Part shown: one piece after another, positions 32,848-64,000 of the stretch
How positions within the stretch are numbered: the stretch's first letter is position 1
How the letters are laid out: the number at the start of each line of letters is the position of its first letter
Source of the DNA: a virus
Lineage: Duplodnaviria > Caudoviricetes
IMG/VR virus record: IMGVR_UViG_3300021400_001341
Span: 32,001 to 96,000 of that record
Direction: 5' to 3' (one strand)
Length of the DNA stretch: 64,000 nt
The notes under the pieces: model-generated
The model's input: only the letters and a program-made list of their open reading frames with translations
Told to the model about the DNA's origin: nothing
Databases searched by the model: none
Position numbers and translations under genes: made by a program

Positions 32848-33243
32848 TCCACATCACCGCCTGCCCGCAATATCCGCACCAATGCGGATATGTATCGTTC
32901 CACATTACAATGCCACACTTCGGACAGTGCCCGCGTTTGATGCTGAATATTTGTTCCGTTACTTCAACATGCTTCGGTTCATGCATTTTCAGTAGTTCCT
33001 CCGCCATTTCTTTAGCCCATGGATCAACGTCCATTGCTGTTTTTATGTGGTCAATCAGGGATTGTATTGGTACTTTCCATTTATACATAGTAGAACCATC
33101 CTTTTTCAATAGTCTCGTTCCGCTTGGCGGCATTCTCTATCCAAGCTCTTCTACTCGCAAGCGTTACTCGCCTGTGTTTTCATCGTGTGACCACGCCCTC
33201 GCGTATCCAGTGGGGAGACTGTTATTTGAATTGTTGTACGAGA

Positions 33244-33290
33244 TTGACATTTCTATTTTTCTTCCACTATAATCTCTCTTTAAAGGAGAG
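33244..33290 (+). promoter_or_regulatory. Sigma-A consensus promoter and RBS of the integrase
   Basis: TTGACA(33244)-18nt-TATAAT(33268); RBS AAGGAG lies inside a CTCTC/GAGAG hairpin. Confidence 0.75.
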
Positions 33291-33297
33291 TGTTTAT

Positions 33298-34407
33298 ATG
33301 TCTGACAAGAAAGGTAAACCTAAAGGTAGAGGTAACGGTCAGGGTACCGCCATTCTTTCAAAAAATAAGAAATCATGGATTGCCATAGTAACTGTCGGCA
33401 AAAAGATTGTTGATGGCAAATTCTATACTGTCAGAAAGAAAAAGAGTGGTTTCCCTACAAAGAAAGCTGCCCTTGCTTACTGTCCTACTCTTTTAGCTGA
33501 AGGCCGTATAGACAAACATGCACGTTATACGCTTCAAGAGGTTTATGAAATGTGGGAATCATATTATGAACCTCGTGTTGGAACTTCAACAATGGACAAC
33601 TATAAATACGCTTATAAACATTTTAAGCCGCTACATTCAATATACATAGACAGTATAGAGCCTGAGAACTTACAGGAATGCATCGATAAGTGTAAGTCCG
33701 GAAAACGTACTCATCAGAACATGAAGGTTACAGCCGGGCTCATCTGGGCATGGGCTGTAGACCACAAGATTTTAGATAGAGACATTACGCGAAACTTATT
33801 TATCGGTCATTTAGAATCCACAAAACGTGAACCGCTTACAGACGAAGAAGTAAAAATGTTTAAGAACGCTATCGGTAAAGAGAAGTACGCTGAGTACATT
33901 TACTGCTTGTGTTATCTTGGTTTCCGTCCAGGTGAACTGTTGGAGCTTAAGAAGGACGCTCTTCATGAAGAAGAAATAGACGGAAAGAAAATCTATTATT
34001 TCATCGGTGGCAAGAAGACAGAGGCCGGACGAAACAGGACGGTCATTATTCCATCTCAGATACTGGATATCGTTCTCCAACGGAAAGAAGTCGAAGGAAC
34101 AGACTTATTATTTCCACAGTATGTCTATTCCAAAAAGAAGCCATATGACTTTATCAGATTTAAACAGATGACTGATGAATATCTTCGAGATTCCATATTT
34201 AAGAAGATGGCTAAGAAGTTCGGTATTGATTCCAAGAAGGTTCCGTATTGTGCAAGACATACTTATGCTGATAAACTTGAGAAAGCTGCCGGCAAAGATA
34301 AAGACAAAGCGAAGCTCATCGGGCACTCGGACTTTTCATTCACTCAGCACAAATATCAGTCTACAGATATCGCCGACTTAAATACGGTCGTAGAGAGCAT
34401 AGAATGA
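33298..34407 (+). CDS. int: Tyrosine recombinase / phage integrase
   Basis: Start moved to ATG 33298 based on RBS and promoter. Arm-binding N-terminus RGNGQGT; catalytic motifs GFRPGE, KTEAG, YCARHTY, IGH and KY. Confidence 0.9.
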   Translation: MSDKKGKPKGRGNGQGTAILSKNKKSWIAIVTVGKKIVDGKFYTVRKKKSGFPTKKAALAYCPTLLAEGRIDKHARYTLQEVYEMWESYYEPRVGTSTMDNYKYAYKHFKPLHSIYIDSIEPENLQECIDKCKSGKRTHQNMKVTAGLIWAWAVDHKILDRDITRNLFIGHLESTKREPLTDEEVKMFKNAIGKEKYAEYIYCLCYLGFRPGELLELKKDALHEEEIDGKKIYYFIGGKKTEAGRNRTVIIPSQILDIVLQRKEVEGTDLLFPQYVYSKKKPYDFIRFKQMTDEYLRDSIFKKMAKKFGIDSKKVPYCARHTYADKLEKAAGKDKDKAKLIGHSDFSFTQHKYQSTDIADLNTVVESIE

Positions 34408-54540: not shown

Positions 54541-55150
54541 TCTTCTTTTTTCCTTTCAGTTTAGTTTTATTCAAAACCGGAGGTTGATACATCTTTGGTT
54601 TAACGCTTGAGCTGAAATTCTGGAGCATATTCGGCTCATGCGAAAACAGGTACGGTATCGTTTTCCTCTCGGGTTTGTCGGGATTAATTCTTTTAAATTC
54701 TCGTTTTCTGTTGAAATCCCACATCAAGTCTTCAATTGGAACCTTGTGAACATAGATCAGATTTCCAGTAGGATCACCGTATGCATTGCACTCATACCAA
54801 CATACGGCTCCTTCTGGATGGTAGTGTTTTCCTTTAAAACCGTCCTGTGTCTGATAAACAGACATGTAATTTACAAGGTCCTGATGTTTTTTAGGATCTG
54901 TCACAAGAACCTTTGGAATGTTTGATGTCGGTATGCCGCCATAGTATTTAACAATTCTTAATCCTGTTCTATTTGGGGATGTGAGCCAGGATTTGCATAA
55001 GACATATGAGGGCCAGAACGATCCCTTTATTATGTCCTTCCGAAGCGTAATGCCAAGGAAATAATACGTTCTGACTCCTCCTCTTTTTTCTTGCGGTATC
55101 TTCTGCTGTCGTAGTCTTTCTTGATGCTTTCTCTGTGTTTCTTTTGACAT
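54518..55150 (-). CDS. Hypothetical protein (start uncertain)
   Basis: 210-aa ORF filling the gap between the RNAP and recombinase genes; the true start is probably downstream of 55150. Confidence 0.5.
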   Translation of the reverse strand: MSKETQRKHQERLRQQKIPQEKRGGVRTYYFLGITLRKDIIKGSFWPSYVLCKSWLTSPNRTGLRIVKYYGGIPTSNIPKVLVTDPKKHQDLVNYMSVYQTQDGFKGKHYHPEGAVCWYECNAYGDPTGNLIYVHKVPIEDLMWDFNRKREFKRINPDKPERKTIPYLFSHEPNMLQNFSSSVKPKMYQPPVLNKTKLKGKKKNGTKNKN

Positions 55151-57849
55151 GATTCACATCTGCATTGACGCGAATTCAGTCGTTCAAATGTTTTTCCACA
55201 GTCTTCACACTCAAAGAAACCATGAGAAGTCTTAATACATACATGATTGGTGTCCCACGATGGAACTCTTGACTTGCAGTCAGGGCAGATATCACAAGAT
55301 ATTAAATTGCGTTTTATATTCTGAAGAGCTATATCTCCATACACTCTCCAGAACATTTGTTTATGTGCGGCTTTATCAACATTTTCTCCGGCAAATAAAT
55401 ACTTCACAATATATGGATATGATTTTTCGAGCGGGCCAAACGCCTCTCTCATTTCCTGCGCAATCATTTCAGCAAGAAGTTCGTAACCGGCTATCTGTTC
55501 GCGTTCATTGATGTATGGAAGATCTTGAGATTCAATTACGTTTGAAATATTTATATTATCGAATTCGCAGAACAGTTGCGGAATTTCTGGTCTTATTACA
55601 ACGCATGGTTCTGATATCAACATCTTCCAATTGAACTTTAAAATACCGGCATAATTCAAATCTATATTTCCAATATCTGTAAACGATGCGCAAATTCTAT
55701 TCATTGTCGATGCGTTTGGCTTTGCATAGTTTTTCTTAGGTTTTCCAGGTTCTTGTTTTCTTCCGTTTCTGCTAAATTGAAAAAAGTATGGTTGTCTTCC
55801 ATGCTTTCCGCCGACGGCTTTGCTAATTCTTTTTGCAACTTCTGGATATTTTTCATATGTATTAATCAATCCTGATTTCGCGCCGTCTATGACTTGATTG
55901 TTGTAGTATGTAAGCCAAGCTGCAGCCAGCCTGTCTGGCTTATCTCTATTCCACAATCTTGTCAGCATGTTGGATATTTCTCCAATTCCTGAACAGTCAT
56001 GTGCTCTCTTAAGCCCATGAAACTGTCCTTCCTTTGAAATAACTTCAGGAGCAGCTTTATTTGCGTCATAAAATAGAGGGACAACATCGTATTTATTTAT
56101 GTTTCTTTCCGCTATCTCTACTATTAGGGGATCTACGACAACATTTAGCTGGTCTCCATCGTTATCAAACTGAAGAATTCTTGAAATTAAATCATGACAT
56201 GATGTATAAACACCATTTGTATAGAACCATTCATATACATTGTTATCATGACATATATTTCGCACTGCATGCTCCATATATAAGTGAGGAGAACGCAGCA
56301 CATCGGCTTTATCCTGTCTGCGGAATATCAAACATGCAATTTCGCCGTTTTTTAGCAAGCCTTGGGGATGTTCCTGCTTGAGGAACCAGTGCTCGCATGC
56401 TGCATACATGTCCGGTATTGCAAACAATCTTTTGTTGTTTGTTTTTATTTTTCCTGATTTAGCGTCATACAACATTCGTTTTCGAATGTCTTTGAGCTGA
56501 TTTCTGGTATACGCTTCTCTTAACAACTCTGGATATAAAGCAAGAGCCGCCTTATAAGGCGACTCCGAAAGCTCGTTTGCGTGAAGCGTTCGCAACATTG
56601 CGTCTTTGTTTTTTGCTAAATTGCTTATTCGATCATGCTCTCTGTGCGTAAACCTGTTTATTTCATCGTCAGTCATATCTTCCAGTGTTTGCAGAATCTG
56701 ATAGTTTGTATATGTTTCTTCAATGTCTTCTTCTTCATATTGTGTTTTACAGAACCTTGCTCCACACTTTTTAAAGTTGTCTTTATATTCCTTCCATGTC
56801 TCATAGTATTTCCACATTTTAAACTGACTTGTTGTAAATACAATCTGGATATTTTCTTTTTCAAGATCGTGCTCTAAACCCCAAGCGTCAGTTAAGACAG
56901 GCAGAATGTTATGAAATTTACAAAACCGCATATAGTCGAATGAAGCAAGAAGTCCTTTAAACCATGGGCCACGAATCATGAAATTACTTCTTGATACGGC
57001 CGGAAGCATCATACCGCAGCCATCTGTATGATCAATCACAACAGTTCTTATATCTGTTTCACAGCTATAGTCAGATTTGATATACATCATTCGGTCTGTA
57101 ACTTCACCTTCAAATTCAGGTATTACAATACATCGATCTATATCAAAATCCGTCCATTCGTCTGAGGCTGAACTTGATAGCGCTACATACGCAAGATATT
57201 TGTTTACGTTCGCACCAGACTTTTCGTTAATTTTATCCCATGATAATCCGCATTCCAGTCTTTCATGAATCTTGTTCCACATATCATCAGACATAAATAC
57301 ACATTTATCTCTTCTGAGTTGCCCGCTGGACGCAGTAAAACATCTGTAGTGTTTATTCGATACCGTACCGTCAGGATTTAAAATCGGAAAATAAAAGCCA
57401 TCAAGAACAAGCTGCTGTAGCACATCTGCAGACTTCCATTTAATCACGATTTTATCAAATGTATAATCAAGATGCGATAATCCCATTGCTCTTGATAGCT
57501 CTGATGAAAATTCTGTTATTTTCTTTGAAAACTTTAATGTTTTCCACGTTGCTCCTTCGGGAAATGGTTCGCTGTCTTTTTTATTGTATAAAATACTTTT
57601 CAGTCGTACTGTTCTTGGTTTACCGCTATGGAGTTTGACGAGTGCAACCAGCTTGTCGACGGCATCTTTCTTTTGTTTTTTTAACCAAGGAACTTTTTCG
57701 TTTGCAGGATCTTTATCCGCAAGTCGGTTAAGTTCATTCTTTGCTTCTACGATTTTCATATACAGATCATATTCCTGATCTGTAAACAAATCATAGTTAG
57801 TCAGCGACACCAGTCTGATTTGATTTTTCAGATAGCTCTTATCTGACAT
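55030..57849 (-). CDS. Single-subunit double-psi-barrel RNA polymerase (SPbeta YonO-like; homologous to cellular RdRPs)
   Basis: SSGQLR, TDGCGM, IRGPWFKGLL, LRSPHL and catalytic QFDNDGD; C-terminal Zn fingers. Confidence 0.85.
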   Translation of the reverse strand: MSDKSYLKNQIRLVSLTNYDLFTDQEYDLYMKIVEAKNELNRLADKDPANEKVPWLKKQKKDAVDKLVALVKLHSGKPRTVRLKSILYNKKDSEPFPEGATWKTLKFSKKITEFSSELSRAMGLSHLDYTFDKIVIKWKSADVLQQLVLDGFYFPILNPDGTVSNKHYRCFTASSGQLRRDKCVFMSDDMWNKIHERLECGLSWDKINEKSGANVNKYLAYVALSSSASDEWTDFDIDRCIVIPEFEGEVTDRMMYIKSDYSCETDIRTVVIDHTDGCGMMLPAVSRSNFMIRGPWFKGLLASFDYMRFCKFHNILPVLTDAWGLEHDLEKENIQIVFTTSQFKMWKYYETWKEYKDNFKKCGARFCKTQYEEEDIEETYTNYQILQTLEDMTDDEINRFTHREHDRISNLAKNKDAMLRTLHANELSESPYKAALALYPELLREAYTRNQLKDIRKRMLYDAKSGKIKTNNKRLFAIPDMYAACEHWFLKQEHPQGLLKNGEIACLIFRRQDKADVLRSPHLYMEHAVRNICHDNNVYEWFYTNGVYTSCHDLISRILQFDNDGDQLNVVVDPLIVEIAERNINKYDVVPLFYDANKAAPEVISKEGQFHGLKRAHDCSGIGEISNMLTRLWNRDKPDRLAAAWLTYYNNQVIDGAKSGLINTYEKYPEVAKRISKAVGGKHGRQPYFFQFSRNGRKQEPGKPKKNYAKPNASTMNRICASFTDIGNIDLNYAGILKFNWKMLISEPCVVIRPEIPQLFCEFDNINISNVIESQDLPYINEREQIAGYELLAEMIAQEMREAFGPLEKSYPYIVKYLFAGENVDKAAHKQMFWRVYGDIALQNIKRNLISCDICPDCKSRVPSWDTNHVCIKTSHGFFECEDCGKTFERLNSRQCRCESCQKKHRESIKKDYDSRRYRKKKEEESERIISLALRFGRT

Positions 57850-57963: not shown

Positions 57964-58001
57964 AAAAAAATACGGGCACCGCTGTCTGGCGGCACCCGCA
58001 T
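57964..58001 (-). terminator. Rho-independent terminator closing the Ubl-RT-ncRNA transcript
   Basis: On the - strand AUGCGGGUGCCGC-CAGACA-GCGGUGCCCGUAU followed by U6. Confidence 0.85.
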
Positions 58002-58318: not shown

Positions 58319-59458
58319 TTAGATTTTCCCAGAAATATAAGCTTTCATCATTGTTTTGACGTCAACGCCCCATTTCATATTTGCTTTGTCGACAACCATT
58401 TTGAAATAGTCTGGCTCAATTTGCATATACCAGTTCATTTCACCATGAAGGTGCTGAACATCTCCGAGCTCCCAATATTTCTTGTTCTTTGTATCGAGAA
58501 TAAACGAACATAATGCCGCCTTAAAATATTTCTTTGCACGATATCCTACAGTGATATCAAAATTCCCATTTAGCATCATGCCAAGCATCCAGTTCTGGCC
58601 TTTGAACGAGCCGAAATGCGTTTTCTCGTCTTTGATTGTATACGGCGCATCAAACTCTTTAAATGTATCAATCATGAATTTGACAACATTCTTATATGGA
58701 AATCTTTCCTCTGCAGAAATATGAGTATCGTCGGCATATCTTGTGTAAACCATTTTCCGTTTTGCAAATTCGTTTGCCAGCTTAAAATCAATAGGAATAA
58801 AGATCATATTCGTAAGAGTCGGACTTAATGGAGATCCTTGTGGCAATGCTCCGTTAAGGAACCCTAAAGAAAGAGCTTTCTTCAGTTCTTCTTTTCCGTC
58901 TTTGTCTTTAATTATTTCAGACAACGGAAATACCATTGACAGCATTTTCATAGTAAAATCAAGAGTTGTCGATGGAAAGAATCCTGACAGATCGGTTTTC
59001 AGATACCACTGAGACTTTGCTCTTACGTGTTTCTTAGCAACGTCTTGTACGCATCTGCCAGGGATGTATGCATACGCAGATGTATGATATAAAACGCCGC
59101 ATGTATCAGTTAGAATTGCCGATAATCTGGACATAGCGTGTTTTAATTCATCGCATGGCGCATCTATCCGTCTGAATCCACCAGTCGCCTTAGGAATATA
59201 GAATGTTGTGTACATTGAGGATCTTTCTTTTTCGAATAAATGTTTACAATCCTCATTGAACCGTTTAAACTCGTGTATCATTTGAGATACGTTTATCTTA
59301 TTCATAATATCGTAAGGAATAAACGCCATTTGTTTGGTTATAGTCGCAGAAGAATCAGATTCAACATTTAATTGATTTGGATTTACGGTTTCAAATAATA
59401 CGTCTTCCCATTTCAGTTGTTTTGGTTTTCTATGTTGTTTTACAGTTACATAAATCAT
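58319..59458 (-). CDS. Retron-type reverse transcriptase
   Basis: YTTFYIPKATGGFRRIDAP, HTSAYAY, VAKKH (region X-like), KTDLSGFFPS, LPQGSPLSP, YTRYADD and MLG (region Y-like); no maturase, endonuclease or effector fusion. Confidence 0.92.
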   Translation of the reverse strand: MIYVTVKQHRKPKQLKWEDVLFETVNPNQLNVESDSSATITKQMAFIPYDIMNKINVSQMIHEFKRFNEDCKHLFEKERSSMYTTFYIPKATGGFRRIDAPCDELKHAMSRLSAILTDTCGVLYHTSAYAYIPGRCVQDVAKKHVRAKSQWYLKTDLSGFFPSTTLDFTMKMLSMVFPLSEIIKDKDGKEELKKALSLGFLNGALPQGSPLSPTLTNMIFIPIDFKLANEFAKRKMVYTRYADDTHISAEERFPYKNVVKFMIDTFKEFDAPYTIKDEKTHFGSFKGQNWMLGMMLNGNFDITVGYRAKKYFKAALCSFILDTKNKKYWELGDVQHLHGEMNWYMQIEPDYFKMVVDKANMKWGVDVKTMMKAYISGKI

Positions 59459-59470
59459 TATAATCTTCCT

Positions 59471-59807
59471 CGCGTAATCTAAAAATAATTGAAGGCGTTT
59501 AAGCTTGCAGGGACCCAGTCTATTTATATTCGAGTTTAAGAGTATATTTATTGAAGTATAATGAATGTTAGTGTAAGTTTCACGACTTGTACGAGATTTG
59601 GTCTATAAATATAGTACTTCTTTTGGAACTTGATTTTATTAATTTTCTTGTTTTGATGTGAAAACGCGTTAAGTTCCAGCTTTACCCGAGTTAATAGATC
59701 CAGGGAACAGCAGCCGGCGCCTACAGCCAGCGATTATTCGCTGAGCAAGGCTATACAGCTCATTACATAAACTGCTTGATAGATAACTATCAGAACGACA
59801 TTACGCA
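59471..59807 (-). ncRNA. Retron-like msr-msd cassette A (upstream of RT, canonical position)
   Basis: a1 UGCGUAAU-G(59799); a2 UUUAG-AUUACGCG; hairpins UGAUAG-UUAU-CUAUCA and CAGUUUAU-GUA-AUGAGCUG. Confidence 0.8.
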
Positions 59808-60494
59808 TTAAATTTCTTCGAGCATAAAATTAAAGGCATCCATAATCATTGCCTGTTTTAATTCATGCTTTTTGACAAAGTTAATAAAGTTACATACTCC
59901 AACGTTGCACACCATGCGAACGGTCGGAGCAACACAAAGACTTACCCTGCAAGCCGACATCGGAACAGCTTTTTGAGCTTCTTCGTGTGTGAAATCCATA
60001 GTATTTAACAAGGCTTTCTTATGAGACATATCTGACCAGTCAGCAGCATAATGCTGAGCATCTGTTAAACCTGTTCTAAAATCAAACATAGCTTTTATTG
60101 AATCGTTGAATTTATTTTCAGTAACGATCTTTCTTCGCAGTTCAATATTGTCTACACACAGAAACACATACCCATATAGTTTTTCTCCTTGCCATCCTTC
60201 GCCAAATAGCTCAAGACATTCAGTAAGGTCTTTACGGTCTTCTTCTGGGACAATGCGGATCAGATTGTTAGCTACACATTCAACTTTAGGTTTATACAGA
60301 TCATCACCTGTAAACATCTGATTGACCAGATTCCTGTCTTCTACGACGTCAAAGTCGTATAAAGAAATATTTTTCAGGCCAAACCGAATCAGCAGTTCAG
60401 CCACAGTAGATCCTACAGAACCGCACCCAATAATATGGATGCGGTCTGTAAATTCATCAGGGTTAAAAAAATCAAAAGATTTGCTTAAGTTCAA
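59808..60494 (-). CDS. ThiF/E1-like activating enzyme
   Basis: IIGCGSVG, DFDVVEDRNLVNQ, LCVDN..LR and C-terminal SAC (candidate catalytic Cys). Confidence 0.9.
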   Translation of the reverse strand: MNLSKSFDFFNPDEFTDRIHIIGCGSVGSTVAELLIRFGLKNISLYDFDVVEDRNLVNQMFTGDDLYKPKVECVANNLIRIVPEEDRKDLTECLELFGEGWQGEKLYGYVFLCVDNIELRRKIVTENKFNDSIKAMFDFRTGLTDAQHYAADWSDMSHKKALLNTMDFTHEEAQKAVPMSACRVSLCVAPTVRMVCNVGVCNFINFVKKHELKQAMIMDAFNFMLEEI

Positions 60495-60497
60495 TTG

Positions 60498-61343
60498 TTA
60501 ATCCCACCCTTCATGTCCAAAACCGTCACACCAGTACCACGCTTTACCTTCTGGCTTTTCTTCTTCTTCCTTTTTTTTATCAGCTTTCTTGTCTTTTTGG
60601 CCAGCAAAATCTTCAAATGTTTTGACTTTGCTTTCGCCATAATATCCTGAATAACCGTAATATGAGGTTTGATTACCTCCTGAATAAGTCATGCTTGTAA
60701 CTTTATCTTTCAGACTGTTAATAAATTCTGTGATAGATCCGAACTCATCATCTTCTACAATAACTTCAATGTCATTTTTATCATAGAAAAGGTTATTATC
60801 CAGATCATATAGGAACGAGTTGATATCAAGTGATTTATTCCATATCTGAAATAGATAAAAGCCTTTTCCACCCATATTTTTTACTGTAGAAGCCTGATTC
60901 TCCAGATCTACAGAAGACGGGCTTGTCGACATGTTTACATGAGAATGAGCCTGAAAATGCAGGAACTCTGCCTGCTCATCACTTAAAGTTTCATAGAATT
61001 CAATCATGTCGTCATCATCAGTTACAACGCGACCACCAGATACTTTCTGGTTACAGACGATGATGTCGTATACTTGAAACTTTTTTGCGTCCAGCCTACG
61101 AATCAAACCATACCATCCAATCTCTGAAGAATAGTTCTTCACCATCTCCAGACACCGCAGATATGCCTGCGGAGTAAACTGAATGATCATCTTTTCTTTA
61201 GCTTTTACAGAAAAGCTCTGTTCATATGTAAACTTTGATTCATTGATATTAAACTCATAATCATCTAAAGCTTTAATAAACTCTTTTACCATTCCATTAA
61301 GCAGAGTTTCTTTAGCTTGCTTACTTAGTGTTATCGGTTTCAT
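60498..61343 (-). CDS. JAB/MPN+ metalloprotease (deubiquitinase-like)
   Basis: SEIGWYG (Glu) and HSHVNMSTSPSSVD (HxH...SxxD). Confidence 0.85.
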   Translation of the reverse strand: MKPITLSKQAKETLLNGMVKEFIKALDDYEFNINESKFTYEQSFSVKAKEKMIIQFTPQAYLRCLEMVKNYSSEIGWYGLIRRLDAKKFQVYDIIVCNQKVSGGRVVTDDDDMIEFYETLSDEQAEFLHFQAHSHVNMSTSPSSVDLENQASTVKNMGGKGFYLFQIWNKSLDINSFLYDLDNNLFYDKNDIEVIVEDDEFGSITEFINSLKDKVTSMTYSGGNQTSYYGYSGYYGESKVKTFEDFAGQKDKKADKKKEEEEKPEGKAWYWCDGFGHEGWD

Positions 61344-61369
61344 ATAATTCTCCTTTTAGAACGGCATGA

Positions 61370-62818
61370 TTATTCCTGATCGTTCATGTTCTGCTTAGAC
61401 AGCCACAAAAGCGCTTCTTCCGGTGTCATTGCAACGCCTTCATTGTTCTGGATAATCTTATTCTTTGAGGACAAAACTTCCTGAAGAAACGGCCTGAACG
61501 TGTACTCAGTTTCATCAATGTTCACAGATCCAATAGCCGCGATTGAACATTCGATTGCAGACATAATATCCGCTCTGCGTAAGCATTGAGAGATTTGCTC
61601 TCTGTTTCGTCCTGGACATCCATGAATCTTGAAGTGCGGATTTGTAATATAGTTCTTCAACGACGGATTGTCTTCTGCGATCATCTGACCGCGCTGAGCG
61701 ATCATATCGCACAGAGTAATCTTCAATTCAATATAGCCTTTCATTCTGATATACAGCAAAGGCCTGCTATTGAAGATGTTATCCAACAGAAGCTTTCTTT
61801 TCGACTTGTCTCTGAATATGCTGTCTTCTGGTAATCTATAGCTGTCATAGATATTATATCTGCGAACAGCGTTATTCCACTTATTCAGATCGAAGTTTGT
61901 CAACAGATTATCCGCACAGAAACACAGAGTGCCGTCAATATACTGAATATCGTGAATCCTCGGACAACTGGACAGATAGTCAATAGCTTCCTGTTCTTCC
62001 TGATTTCGACCGTCGCTGTTGACAACTTGAAGTCCTTCAAACTGAACAATAAGTTCGTTATATCTTTCCATCATATGGCGATAATCGCTCATAATGGTGT
62101 CAAGCCTATCGTTGACGTTATCGAGCTCCTGACGGCACCTGTCGATTCTTCCCTGCCTGAAACCCTTGAAACACTGAGTAAGCTCCTGACGAAGCAGATC
62201 TGCTTTCATATACTGGAGAACAGCAGAAGTCTTCTCAATAAAGTTTGTCGTTGTTTTATTTGTAAGACTTTTCAAAATTTCTGTTTCCTCTTTTGTAAGA
62301 GGATGAGTTTTGAATAAAGCCGGATACAACAAAGGAATAAACGAGATTGATAAATGATAAAGCGCATATGAAGTGGAGTTCACCACCAAAAATGCTGCAT
62401 TGTTTTCTGGATTAATAAACACGAGATACGCAGAGTTATTAAGCTGTTGAGCTATAAAATTTTCAACTGAAATAAGCTCTTTCAATCCTATGTTTTTAGC
62501 GTGATCTCTTATTGCATTCAGATTATTTGCACTAAGATTGACAAGCAAATAATAGAACGCAGGAATATTGTTGACGACTTCTTCGCTCGACTCTGAACGA
62601 ACTCTGTTCCAGTCGTCAATACTGTTCAGTACGTCCTGTTCATTGGACGCATACAGATAAGCGCCCGTTATACCGTTATAGTTGTTTACTCTTGGTTTAA
62701 TAAGTGCAGTAGCAAGACTAATGAGAGAAAAGTCAGGATCTTGCGCAACTCTCATTAAAGAATTTACATATGTTGTTGTCAGTGGAGCAATCGGATTAGA
62801 AATAGTTTGATTAAACAT
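61370..62818 (-). CDS. Coiled-coil protein with putative C-terminal E2-like domain
   Basis: NPHFKIHGCPG resembles the E2 active-site His...Cys signature; lies between the Ubl and JAB genes. Confidence 0.55.
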   Translation of the reverse strand: MFNQTISNPIAPLTTTYVNSLMRVAQDPDFSLISLATALIKPRVNNYNGITGAYLYASNEQDVLNSIDDWNRVRSESSEEVVNNIPAFYYLLVNLSANNLNAIRDHAKNIGLKELISVENFIAQQLNNSAYLVFINPENNAAFLVVNSTSYALYHLSISFIPLLYPALFKTHPLTKEETEILKSLTNKTTTNFIEKTSAVLQYMKADLLRQELTQCFKGFRQGRIDRCRQELDNVNDRLDTIMSDYRHMMERYNELIVQFEGLQVVNSDGRNQEEQEAIDYLSSCPRIHDIQYIDGTLCFCADNLLTNFDLNKWNNAVRRYNIYDSYRLPEDSIFRDKSKRKLLLDNIFNSRPLLYIRMKGYIELKITLCDMIAQRGQMIAEDNPSLKNYITNPHFKIHGCPGRNREQISQCLRRADIMSAIECSIAAIGSVNIDETEYTFRPFLQEVLSSKNKIIQNNEGVAMTPEEALLWLSKQNMNDQE

Positions 62819-62834
62819 CTTATAATCTCCTTCG

Positions 62835-62869
62835 AAAAAATAGGGGGAGGGATCACAGTCCTCTCCCCC
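62835..62869 (-). terminator. Terminator/attenuator after the Ubl gene
   Basis: GGGGGAGAGGAC/AUCCCUCCCCC stem followed by a U-tract on the - strand. Confidence 0.65.
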
Positions 62870-62881
62870 GTCGGGTGGAGA

Positions 62882-63487
62882 TTACATCAGCGTAATAGCT
62901 TCACGAATCTCCTGTTCCTTGTTGTTTGCAGCTTCAATCTTCTCAGGCACTTTGCCTTCCAGTTCGTTCAGGCGAAGCAGAGCGGTACCCAGCTTGTCAG
63001 TCACAGCCTGAACCTTATCTTCTACGGCAGGATCAATTACGGTAGTAATAACAGCATATCCGTCATGATCAGCACGAGTGGAGAACACAGCGCCATTGTT
63101 GTTCAGCGACCCCATGTTCTCGTCAATGGCAACCAGGAAAATGGGCTCATTGTCCTCGTTGTACAGGCCAAAGTCAGGTTCGAACTTCAGAACTTTCTTC
63201 CAGTCATCCAGCTTCACACCAGACTTGATAATGCACGCATCACCAGTCAGAATGATCTTTGCGGCATTGTCCATCTTCACGATAGAAGACATACGGCAGG
63301 TCTCTCCGACACCCAGTTCACGGAGGGTCTTGTTCAGGTCGCCAACGCGCAGCGGCACAGAGTCGATAGTGTTCGTGCAGGAGTCGTAATTGACGTCATT
63401 CTCTTCATAGATTTCACGAAGAGTCTTAGCCTCGCTGGCGATAACGGTTTTACGTCCTGCGTTAGTGATGAGGGTGATCTTTACCAT
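62882..63487 (-). CDS. Ubiquitin-like (beta-grasp) domain fused to a C-terminal domain
   Basis: First ~75 aa (MVKITLIT..RKTVI....TLREI.....DLNKTLRELGV...RMSSIVKMDNA) fit a Ubl pattern; first gene of the E2/JAB/E1 cluster. Confidence 0.65.
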   Translation of the reverse strand: MVKITLITNAGRKTVIASEAKTLREIYEENDVNYDSCTNTIDSVPLRVGDLNKTLRELGVGETCRMSSIVKMDNAAKIILTGDACIIKSGVKLDDWKKVLKFEPDFGLYNEDNEPIFLVAIDENMGSLNNNGAVFSTRADHDGYAVITTVIDPAVEDKVQAVTDKLGTALLRLNELEGKVPEKIEAANNKEQEIREAITLM

Positions 63488-63633
63488 GGTTTTCTTCTCC
63501 TTTTAAAATGTAGTTTGGGAATGAGTAAACGGAACCGCCTCCAGATTTTCCAGAGGCGGCTCCAAGCGGTCATTTACGACGACCGTTGCCGAAAACAACA
63601 TGCTCCCGCAAAGCCACAGCAAGCATGAAATTT

Positions 63634-63939
63634 TTAAATTACCTGAATTCCGATAACAGACAGAAAGTCATTTCCTACAGCATTTTCCTTTTCTGCTGCA
63701 AGAGCTTCGGCTTCCTGTTGTTCCATAATCTTCTTTTCCAGTTGTTCAAAGACAAGCCTGTCGTCTCCGTCTGTATCTGCGTATCCGTCTTCATCGTCTT
63801 CATCGTCTTCTTCATAGCAATAAACGTCATATCCGCAGATAAATACGCTTTCTCCGTTTCTTGCATGTTCAAGCGAGTAGCCGCAGTCTTCTTTTTCAGA
63901 TTCTGCCCTATTCTCAGCCCAGTATCTAAGTTCATTCAT
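63634..63939 (-). CDS. Small acidic hypothetical protein
   Basis: 101-aa ORF with an EEDDEDDED tract. Confidence 0.45.
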   Translation of the reverse strand: MNELRYWAENRAESEKEDCGYSLEHARNGESVFICGYDVYCYEEDDEDDEDGYADTDGDDRLVFEQLEKKIMEQQEAEALAAEKENAVGNDFLSVIGIQVI

Positions 63940-64000
63940 ATATCCATCGTAGTTTAATTCTTTTAAAACATCTGATGGGTTAAACTCGTATCCACAAACT

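Follow-up and report, generated by a model that had tools for sequence, protein, structure and literature searches.

A likely ubiquitin-like conjugation cascade carried by gut phages in one accessory cassette with a retron-type reverse transcriptase

Protein tagging by the Bil, CBASS and Bub systems has so far been described as a weapon of the host against phages. In Bil (BilABCD), the ubiquitin-like protein (Ubl), the conjugating enzyme E2, the JAB peptidase and the activating enzyme E1 are encoded by separate genes, there is no E3, and the E2 is thought to pick the target. Is there such a kit on the side of the phages? The DNA analysed here (the window) is a stretch of 64,000 nucleotides, bases 32001-96000 of the 108,026-bp IMG/VR record IMGVR_UViG_3300021400_001341, which has direct terminal repeats (DTR) and comes from an uncultured gut phage. 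On its minus strand four contiguous genes encode a Ubl fused to a second domain called X (Ubl-X), an E2-like protein, a JAB peptidase and a ThiF-type E1, and downstream of them lies the gene of a retron-type reverse transcriptase (RT). We consider it likely that these genes specify a complete phage-encoded ubiquitin-like conjugation cascade and a retron-type RT in one accessory six-gene cassette, which would be a conflict device of temperate phages of gut Clostridia.

The original prediction, made from the sequence alone, had named four contiguous genes with Ubl, NPH..C, JAB and ThiF motifs. All four open reading frames (ORFs) are found where it placed them, on the minus strand at 62882-63487, 61370-62818, 60498-61343 and 59808-60494 with spacings of 63, 26 and 3 nt in that order, and the motifs are conserved in homologues. 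The parts of the kit, in positions of the window, are the following.

63263..63487, minus strand: Ubl domain, residues 1-75 of Ubl-X, placed by fold matches; predicted mature C-terminus K71-M-D73-N-A75
62885..63262, minus strand: domain X, residues 76-201 of Ubl-X, modelled as beta-rich with a C-terminal helical hairpin
62835..62869, minus strand: hairpin and T-run between the genes of Ubl-X and the E2-like protein, -23.8 kcal/mol, z-score -2.1
61370..62818, minus strand: E2-like protein, 482 aa, from its model and conservation; C-domain (residues 270-482) at 61373-62011, N393-P-H395-x5-C401 at 61616-61642
60498..61343, minus strand: JAB/JAMM metallopeptidase, 281 aa; E74 at 61122-61124, H133...D146 at 60906-60947
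59808..60494, minus strand: ThiF-type E1, 228 aa, Pfam ThiF 2.5e-20; C182 at 59949-59951

How does this set compare with the described systems? It is like Bil in giving a separate gene to each of the four activities, and 8tyz_B, the Bil Ubl from a bacterial E1-E2-Ubl complex, is among the matches of the phage Ubl in a VIA structural search (Z 8.8). Unlike Bil, which is bacterial, the cassette is encoded by phages, and its E1 is a single 228-aa adenylation domain, whereas BilD, the E1 of Bil, has the form IAD-AAD-CYS (PMC11601596). Its tag has a terminal Ala and comes with X, fused or as a pair, its E2-like protein is 482 aa long with extra domains and matches no E2 sequence model, and an RT is constantly present. 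The Ubl and E2 of a Bil system should be recognised by PADLOC models; PADLOC gave no family match for the 201-aa or the 482-aa protein. Type I Bub (6E/DUF6527) resembles the cassette in another way: its tag is an N-terminal fusion that is cut by a JAB, so that the C-terminus of the Ubl is exposed (PMC11601596), and its adenylating E1 is small. In contrast to the cassette, Bub fuses the Ubl to the E2, makes Ser/Tyr oxyesters and has no catalytic Cys, while in the cassette the Ubl is fused to X and the E2-like protein has an invariant Cys401; the E1 of the cassette also carries invariant C182 and C187, and no DUF6527 protease (BubE) recurs. With type II CBASS (Cap2/Cap3) the cassette shares sequence likeness, as the best defence-model match of the adenylation half of its E1 is Cap2 (PADLOC E1-E2, 2.2e-16) and its JAB matches the PADLOC JAB models. 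It has no E2-E1 fusion, CD-NTase or nucleotide-activated effector as in CBASS, and it has a dedicated Ubl.

The AlphaFold model of the 201-aa Ubl-X has a predicted local distance difference test (pLDDT) of 87 and a ubiquitin fold at its N-terminus. Residues 1 to about 74 match ubiquitin, SUMO, ISG15 and a bacterial Bil Ubl with Foldseek (prob 1.00, template modelling score 0.6-0.67), and all 50 top rows of the VIA search are Ubl or UBX folds (Z 8.0-9.7, root-mean-square deviation (rmsd) 2.0-2.5, 67-74 residues). For the 62882-63487 product the model therefore predicts the beta-grasp fold that the original prediction expected, about 75 residues long and with a flexible tail at its C-terminus. 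Sequence methods give no such assignment: Ubl-X has no family in NCBIfam or PHROGs, and sequence and profile searches of the PDB with Ubl-X and with X returned nothing significant. X was also considered as a second beta-grasp and rejected, since hhalign shows no relation between X and the Ubl; a protein-atlas search with X gave nothing at 0.8 or above.

Where does the tag end? The pLDDT of the model falls to 69 at residues 71-80, and in structural alignments the final residue of ubiquitin or SUMO falls at about residue 75 of Ubl-X. T22, K71 and D73 are invariant in all gene layouts, and A75 is nearly so. A search of IMG/VR with an E1 profile returned 257 loci, and hidden Markov model (HMM) scans of 81 loci were read. 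Two layouts were seen in the 81 loci: the fused Ubl-X, as in the window, and a split one, found in about 50 related phages, with the gene of X upstream of a standalone Ubl gene. The standalone Ubl ORFs end exactly after K-(A/Q/T)-D-N-A in 36 cases out of 50 and with 1-3 extra residues in the remainder. Counted as distinct sequences, 18/31 end in DNA and 5/31 in DNAA, and the rest have short caps (DNALAA, DNATSK, DGGC, DGAR, DSAAI); in a third clade the end is KADSA plus one residue. The standalone X starts M-A-K-I-(T/V)-I-A-G-D-A, to be compared with A76-K-I-I-L-T-G-D-A in the window. Because the standalone Ubl mostly ends at DNA and X starts with M-A-K-I (the Met being removed before Ala), other phages directly encode the two products that a cut of the window protein between Ala75 and Ala76 would give. 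Thus a processing site between Ala75 and Ala76 is strongly supported by sequence comparison, and the trimming after KMDNA that was originally proposed falls exactly where the split genes end and begin. The JAB is most likely the protease that would cut Ubl-X after Ala75. A second, independent Ubl-X fusion, with the tail KAAAA, is found in locus L185, which marks Ubl and X as functional partners.

The JAB has an exact JAMM motif, E74...H133-x-H135-x7-S143-x2-D146, which is invariant in 10 homologues. It matches the PADLOC JAB model at 1.2e-4 and Pfam Prok-JAB with 14.2 bits (cut-off 25); its best PDB profile match is Rpn11, with the motif in register and an E-value of 0.12 that is not significant, and NCBIfam and PHROGs give nothing. 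Note that none of the 146 loci is without a JAB, even where the Ubl requires no trimming. Processing of the precursor is therefore not its only job, and deconjugation is the obvious second. At its C-terminus (60498-60640 in the window) the JAB and its homologues have a linker of low complexity and then a conserved aromatic, W-rich tail (Y-W-x-D-G-x-x-x-E-G-W-D-W), which may be a docking peptide.

The E1 is a single domain that matches Pfam ThiF (PF00899) with 73.1 bits against a cut-off of 28.1. It starts with a TTG codon at a position conserved in homologues. Over the adenylation half, its PDB matches are UBA5, MoeB, MccB and Cap2; the best solved match (profile, 1.2e-11) is PDB 9egb/9egc/9egd, a 'THIF-type NAD/FAD binding fold' protein with 7 chains per entry. 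It is the most conserved member of the set, with 61-71% identity to relatives and a mean column identity of 76% over 10 homologues. Its invariant residues include the GCGSVGS loop (GxGxxG, residues 23-28), D47/D49, K68/K70, D115, C182 and C187, and D115 is a candidate for the Mg-binding aspartate. C182 stands just before a conserved A/M-P-T-V stretch, at what we take to be the site of the crossover-loop cysteine of MoeB/ThiF; HMMER could not align that half.

The model of the E2-like protein (pLDDT 90) shows an alpha/beta domain at the N-terminus, then a helix of 78 residues and a further domain at the C-terminus. For the C-domain (residues 273-432) the best VIA matches are RWD domains, namely Knl1 4nf9 (Z 6.4, rmsd 3.3, 91 residues), the SEA complex 8adl (Z 6.2) and 8q5h (Z 6.1). 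RWD domains belong to the same fold superfamily as the E2 enzymes. Among 49 members of the family, which are 19-42% identical, only N393, H395, C401 and A421 are invariant, and they sit in the loop that follows strand four, the site of HPN...Cys in E2 enzymes. The order of secondary structure in the model (alpha1, beta1-4, motif loop, Cys, three helices) also fits an E2. The N-domain bears a weak but consistent likeness to MoaB/MogA/gephyrin-G (Z 5-6.3 over about 120 residues, more than 15 entries). Mean pairwise identity is 0.35 in the N-domain, 0.29 in the helix and 0.43 in the C-domain. Within residues 1-190, M1, F2, D29, R43, H155 and E178 are kept across the 49 diverse members; as they are kept in a domain that evolves faster than the C-domain, this hints at a constant ligand or partner and not at a fast-changing target.

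The family to which this protein belongs is large and unannotated. A profile of the C-domain, run against 1.84 billion representative proteins, found 1,435 clusters (50% identity) at E <= 0.001, of which 873 reach 1e-10 or better; the top 150 share one architecture of about 450-510 aa. In Pfam, 26 and 49 members were scanned with no consistent family and no PF14460 match, and none of the 49 has a family there; scans of the longest E2-like, JAB and RT variants gave no informative fused domain. With the window protein itself, sequence and profile searches of the PDB gave nothing significant, while tblastn against GenBank phages and a single-protein pattern search of IMG/VR gave nothing. BFVD returned one uncharacterised gut siphovirus protein for the 482-aa model, and a second Foldseek look matched only the MoaB-like N-domain and the long helix. 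A protein-language-model search returned viral clusters (score 0.92) with Prok-E2_D in 15% of their members. This leads to the PRTRC cassettes, which combine Prok-E2_D (protein B) with a ThiF-family protein. They are like the phage cassette in that mobile elements pair a small ThiF-type enzyme with a divergent E2, and the spacing N-x7-C-x-G(-x-N) is common to the E2-like protein and Prok-E2_D (PRTRC protein B and ten relatives). They are unlike it in that the phage cassette has no ParB and its E2-like protein has 482 aa as against about 212 aa; the PRTRC ThiF model TIGR03736 scores 20.5 bits on the phage E1, its cut-off being 144.75.

Do these enzymes meet? In a prediction of three chains (E1, Ubl residues 1-75 and the C-domain of the E2-like protein), made with our own alignments, the complex scored 0.77 and the best control 0.19; a score of 0.77 was reached by 58/80 solved complexes and 2/110 mismatched pairs. 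Between runs, at least 98% of contacts are the same, and the partner has a pLDDT of at least 83. The predicted interface consists, on the E2-like side, of the helices just after Cys401 (404-431) together with 307-312 and 350-353, and on the E1 side of residues 16-18, 42, 102-108, 128-132 and 154-157. This model supports binding of the E2-like C-domain to E1 beside the invariant Cys401.

Several results weigh against a conjugation cascade and should be set beside the above. The tag does not expose a C-terminal Gly or Gly-Gly; Ala75 stands in its place, and natural ends are D-N-A in the majority and otherwise D-S-A plus one residue, D-G-G-C, D-G-A-R and A-A-A-A. E1 has N58 at the Arg of the NLxRQ motif that is canonical in ThiF/MoeB. 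The RWD matches, at Z 6.1-6.4, are below the level that the tool treats as safe, so the fold alone is only suggestive; a Foldseek search of the PDB with the whole 482-aa model gave no match at E <= 0.001, and the protein matches no E2 model of Pfam, NCBIfam or PADLOC and nothing in PHROGs. Prok-E2_D and the C-domain, compared by hhalign with one or with 11 sequences, are not significantly similar (prob 0.2-0.3%), with the Cys and the Gly aligned, and for this reason we do not file the protein under Prok-E2_D. The complex score, finally, measures the confidence of a model, and E1-E2 pairs resemble solved complexes. As to the Ala, the conjugated C-terminus in CBASS can reportedly be Ala too. The varied ends also led us to reject an MccB-like reading, in which a C-terminal Asn would be activated to a peptide-adenylate: the Asn is not conserved, as the DSA, DGG and AAA ends show.

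One might then ask whether the kit performs sulfur-carrier or acyl-adenylate chemistry instead. The Ubl would be a carrier of the ThiS/MoaD/CysO type that an enzyme like ThiF/MoeB activates, the JAB would act like Mec+ and set a product free, and the 482-aa protein would be no protein transferase, which would suit an E2 fold that is not firm, an E1 with best family matches to ThiF, MoeB, MccB and UBA5, and an N-domain weakly resembling MoaB/MogA of the molybdenum cofactor pathway. This seems very improbable to us. ThiS and MoaD end in Gly-Gly and the phage tags in D-N-A, D-S-A, D-G-G or A-A-A; the genes that recur in the cassette include no sulfurtransferase, no rhodanese and none of a cofactor pathway; and an E2 would account for the invariant N-P-H...C, for the RWD-like model and for the predicted docking on E1. 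We thus return to conjugation. That the phage carries its own conjugation pathway, as first proposed, is supported for all four parts by sequence and models, most weakly for the E2 fold: for the 61370-62818 product the top RWD matches, the motif and the strand order agree with the proposed UBC fold, which the low Z values and the empty Foldseek search leave suggestive.

A scheme for the cascade may be given as follows. The tag would be produced in excess as the Ubl-X precursor. A peptidase, most likely the JAB, would cut between Ala75 and Ala76 to yield a Ubl ending in K-M-D-N-A and an X starting with A-K-I-I. The small ThiF-type E1 would adenylate the terminal Ala75, possibly by way of Cys182, and the E2-like protein would dock on E1 and accept the tag on Cys401, assisted by Asn393 and His395. 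The tag would then be passed to lysines of target proteins, with the extra domains of the E2-like protein choosing the target as proposed for Bil E2s, and the JAB would also remove it. What we infer here is every reaction of the scheme, which proteins are tagged, and any coupling with the RT and its small DNAs.

Do the genes belong together with the RT? The order Ubl-X, E2-like, JAB, E1, RT and RNA polymerase is identical in the first 11 relatives. Plain synteny could explain this, so three tests were made: co-occurrence, unbiased clustering and dispensability. For the first, an RT profile was built from diverse members and applied to distinct loci with at least 4.5 kb downstream of E1. The RT lies downstream of E1 on the same strand in 138 of these 139 loci. 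Upstream of E1 in 146 distinct loci are a JAB (146), an E2-like gene (146), a Ubl (141) and X (125); recurring in at least 146 distinct loci, the four-gene cluster is far beyond chance. The pairing with the RT is found also in the split clade, in the third clade and in contigs of metagenome-assembled genomes (MAGs) with E1 identity down to 35%. The third clade (L193:3020-7675, L185:3134-7672, L206:3765-7675) has two Ubl paralogues, each capped by F, M, H, S or Q; its RT is divergent (Pfam RVT_1 7e-21), and its E2-like protein and JAB measure about 605 and about 325 aa. When same-strand ORFs of 90 distinct loci were clustered without bias, only X/Ubl, E2-like, JAB, E1 and RT recurred in at least 25%. 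The association of the kit with the RT, which the original prediction had raised from one locus, thus extends across phages.

The third test concerns the genomes around the cassette. The flanks differ between clades (metallophosphatase, DUF3990, RtcB, HNH, methylase). Where the RNA polymerase is at least 49% identical and there is enough upstream sequence, the cassette is directly upstream in 14/16 loci; at distant RNA polymerase loci (33-38% identity) it is found in 0/32 within 9 kb on either side of the polymerase gene. A complete DTR genome of 110.6 kb (G402), with a polymerase 49% identical, has no E1 of this family anywhere, and likewise three other complete records have none, while the same search detected four known carriers. 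Since the flanks vary and a complete relative is without it, the cassette is a discrete accessory unit and not part of the replication core. Decayed copies are rare (L126 is without E2-like and JAB, L165 without RT). X, Ubl, E2-like, JAB, E1 and RT are one accessory six-gene cassette. Left out of the counts were L134-L145 and L216-L221, which are ordinary ThiF genes with no kit, and E1-like genes of jumbo Xanthomonas/Erwinia phages, which have no JAB, E2-like or Ubl HMM match within 6 kb on either side (L014). In those jumbo phages (L014:5929-6612) a lone, 28%-identical E1 is annotated as thiamine biosynthesis protein. Phages of 172-211 kb (L214:6093-7672, L215:5817-7609) have a distant pair of JAB and E1 only, with E1 identity of 29-37%, and a sigma-factor gene adjoins in L214; no Ubl, E2-like or RT match was found near the genes of L214, L215 and L014.

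Another alternative should be weighed here, namely that the kit serves the particle or replication biology of the phage itself by tagging or chaperoning X, a virion or replication protein. Phages do have a precedent: the tail-assembly Ubl (protein I) and the JAB-NlpC protein K of lambda/T1 were the only phage Ubl-JAB pair in a 2006 survey of prokaryotic ubiquitin systems, and there too the Ubl is fused to a C-terminal domain, with release by the JAB predicted (PMC1779556). A fusion of ubiquitin to a ribosomal protein would be a similar case. The expression signals are suggestive. Ubl-X has a strong Shine-Dalgarno sequence, and its GC content at third codon positions (GC3) is 0.58, the highest among 19 genes checked, its neighbours having 0.33-0.42. 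The hairpin and T-run at 62835-62869, a terminator-like structure between Ubl-X and E2-like that adds to the original description, is likely an attenuator, giving more tag than enzymes. Such features suggest expression like that of a structural protein, with X as an abundant co-product; Ubl and X were fused at least twice independently, and the cassette is in the early and replication gene block. Yet a complete DTR relative with a 49%-identical RNA polymerase does without the cassette, the flanks vary between clades, and the lambda pair has no E1 or E2 (PMC1779556); it also lies in the tail gene cluster, and its Ubl, with a C-terminal Gly, is related to ThiS/MoaD. We judge the particle or replication role distinctly improbable and keep to an accessory device that tags proteins.

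Downstream of E1 follow a 349-nt gap, the 379-aa RT, a 469-nt gap and the gene of a 939-aa RNA polymerase. The features of this part are given below.

59459..59807, minus strand: non-coding gap between E1 and RT, cassette A of the original prediction; no ORF, no Rfam family, fold z-score -2.07
58319..59458, minus strand: retron-type reverse transcriptase, PADLOC RT_II-A 6.4e-45
57970..58001, minus strand: strong intrinsic-terminator-like hairpin at the end of the unit, before the RNA polymerase gene; 13-pair stem with 8 GC pairs, T-run

The RT carries a YADD motif and, with its PADLOC match, belongs to the retron clade. It also matches the NCBIfam retron St85 family at 5.2e-48, but its 163.8 bits are lower than the curated cut-off of 235. 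No Rfam family was found in the non-coding gaps around it. From the end of E1 to the start of the RT profile match the median distance is 417 nt (138 loci). In some loci of the split clade a 269-aa ORF without a Pfam family lies between E1 and RT (L038:7707-8516), where the window has only its gap. As was originally noted, the first clear terminator after the E2-like gene follows the second non-coding gap (58001-57970). Among the 13 retron types of Mestre et al. 2020 (PMC7736814), the likeness is in the retron-type RT, the flanking non-coding gaps and a constant set of partner genes. The cassette is unlike them in that the partner set is a Ubl conjugation kit and in that it is phage-borne; the words ThiF, JAB and ubiquitin are absent from that classification (PMC7736814).

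Is the RT then part of the same machine? Note that co-inheritance with the RT is no proof of a shared mechanism. The tagging kit and the RT might be two independent accessory systems that share an insertion spot, the kit working alone like Bil and the retron having an unrecognised effector or none. A promoter-like site in the E1/RT gap (59662-59633, 10/12 matches) would suit this, as would the rare half-loci, the clustering that is common among defence genes, and the finding of no physical or sequence link between the RT and the proteins of the kit. We think such independence quite unlikely, because the RT follows E1 in all but one of the loci counted, in three clades with E1 identity down to about 35%, and also where the Ubl/X genes are rearranged and the flanks differ; the cassette has no other recurrent neighbour, and no classical retron effector is present. 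The constant partnership of the RT and the lack of a classical effector lead us to entertain, as less likely than not, an integrated device: a retron of a new kind, with ubiquitin-like conjugation as its effector arm, whose RT with its small DNAs would sense or gate E1/E2. In the boldest form of this retron-conjugation reading, the complex of RT and multicopy single-stranded DNA (msDNA), the DNA itself or X would be the tagged substrate.

What would the cassette do for the phage? The original prediction offered three roles, a counter-defence, a superinfection barrier or a partner of the msDNAs. By analogy with Bil, it may exclude rival phages, the retron being a sensor or regulator and tagging the effector arm; we hold this tentatively, at a little short of even. 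Counter-defence or takeover of the host is an unlikely role, though one to be kept in mind, and other roles together have about as much weight. We lean to the exclusion of rival phages over counter-defence or takeover because the cassette is an accessory unit of temperate phages built from two parts that are anti-phage in bacteria. A point on the other side is that the cassette is co-oriented among early replication genes, which fits a function in the lytic cycle as well as it fits a defence expressed by the lysogen.

The hosts can be approached through assembled genomes. MAG bins with the cassette are mostly Clostridia (Oscillospiraceae, Acutalibacteraceae, Christensenellaceae, Lachnospiraceae, Defluviitaleaceae) and come from human, sheep, rabbit, horse and termite guts. 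Binning is weak host evidence. Better evidence is a provirus: a contig of 428 kb from the isolate Clostridiales Family XIII bacterium PM5-7 carries the cassette (L130, the same as L146), and in IMG/VR this stretch is entered as a viral region of 113.7 kb whose E1 is identical. Temperate phages that infect gut Clostridia seem to be the carriers. Among GenBank phage records the cassette is in one alone, MT835544.1, an unannotated human-faecal scaffold with the split layout, and a megablast of the region against GenBank phages gave no match.

As for the genome itself, the window also has tail-fibre-like, DNA polymerase, primase-helicase, exonuclease and PhoH genes and a tyrosine integrase. From the integrase and such genes (tail-fibre-like, polymerase, primase-helicase) the source is probably a large, temperate, tailed phage. 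The integrase (33124-34407, phrog_1 1.4e-38) is encoded on the plus strand, within a long early block that runs on the minus strand. In the window the gene of the YonO-like RNA polymerase (55030-57849; Pfam RdRP, phrog_8308) is intact. In some relatives it falls into 2-3 tblastn pieces with insertions of about 1 kb (L002:12921-16821, L003:10772-15303, L012:12678-16513), and these could be introns, inteins or homing-endonuclease genes. Upstream of Ubl-X is the gene of an acidic protein (63634-63999, at least 121 aa, with runs of D and E), which recurs in some relatives at varying distance. In the gap between the two genes (63488-63633) there is an imperfect GC-rich hairpin at about 63540-63580.

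In full-text searches of the literature no paper came up that links a phage Ubl/E1/E2/JAB kit to a reverse transcriptase, and a jumbo-phage survey mentions no such kit. Here hundreds of phage contigs from gut and rumen carry the full kit of what was described as a host weapon. The kit departs from known systems in four ways: a minimal E1, a tag ending in Ala, a large unannotated E2-like family, and an obligate partner in a retron-type RT. With an exact processing site and an invariant Lys71 the system can be tested directly, since trypsin should leave an x-D-N-A remnant on modified lysines, and a cultured Clostridiales isolate, with its provirus, may serve as a natural system. If the two halves of the cassette cooperate, it would represent a new class of retron effector and a new way to control or aim protein tagging.

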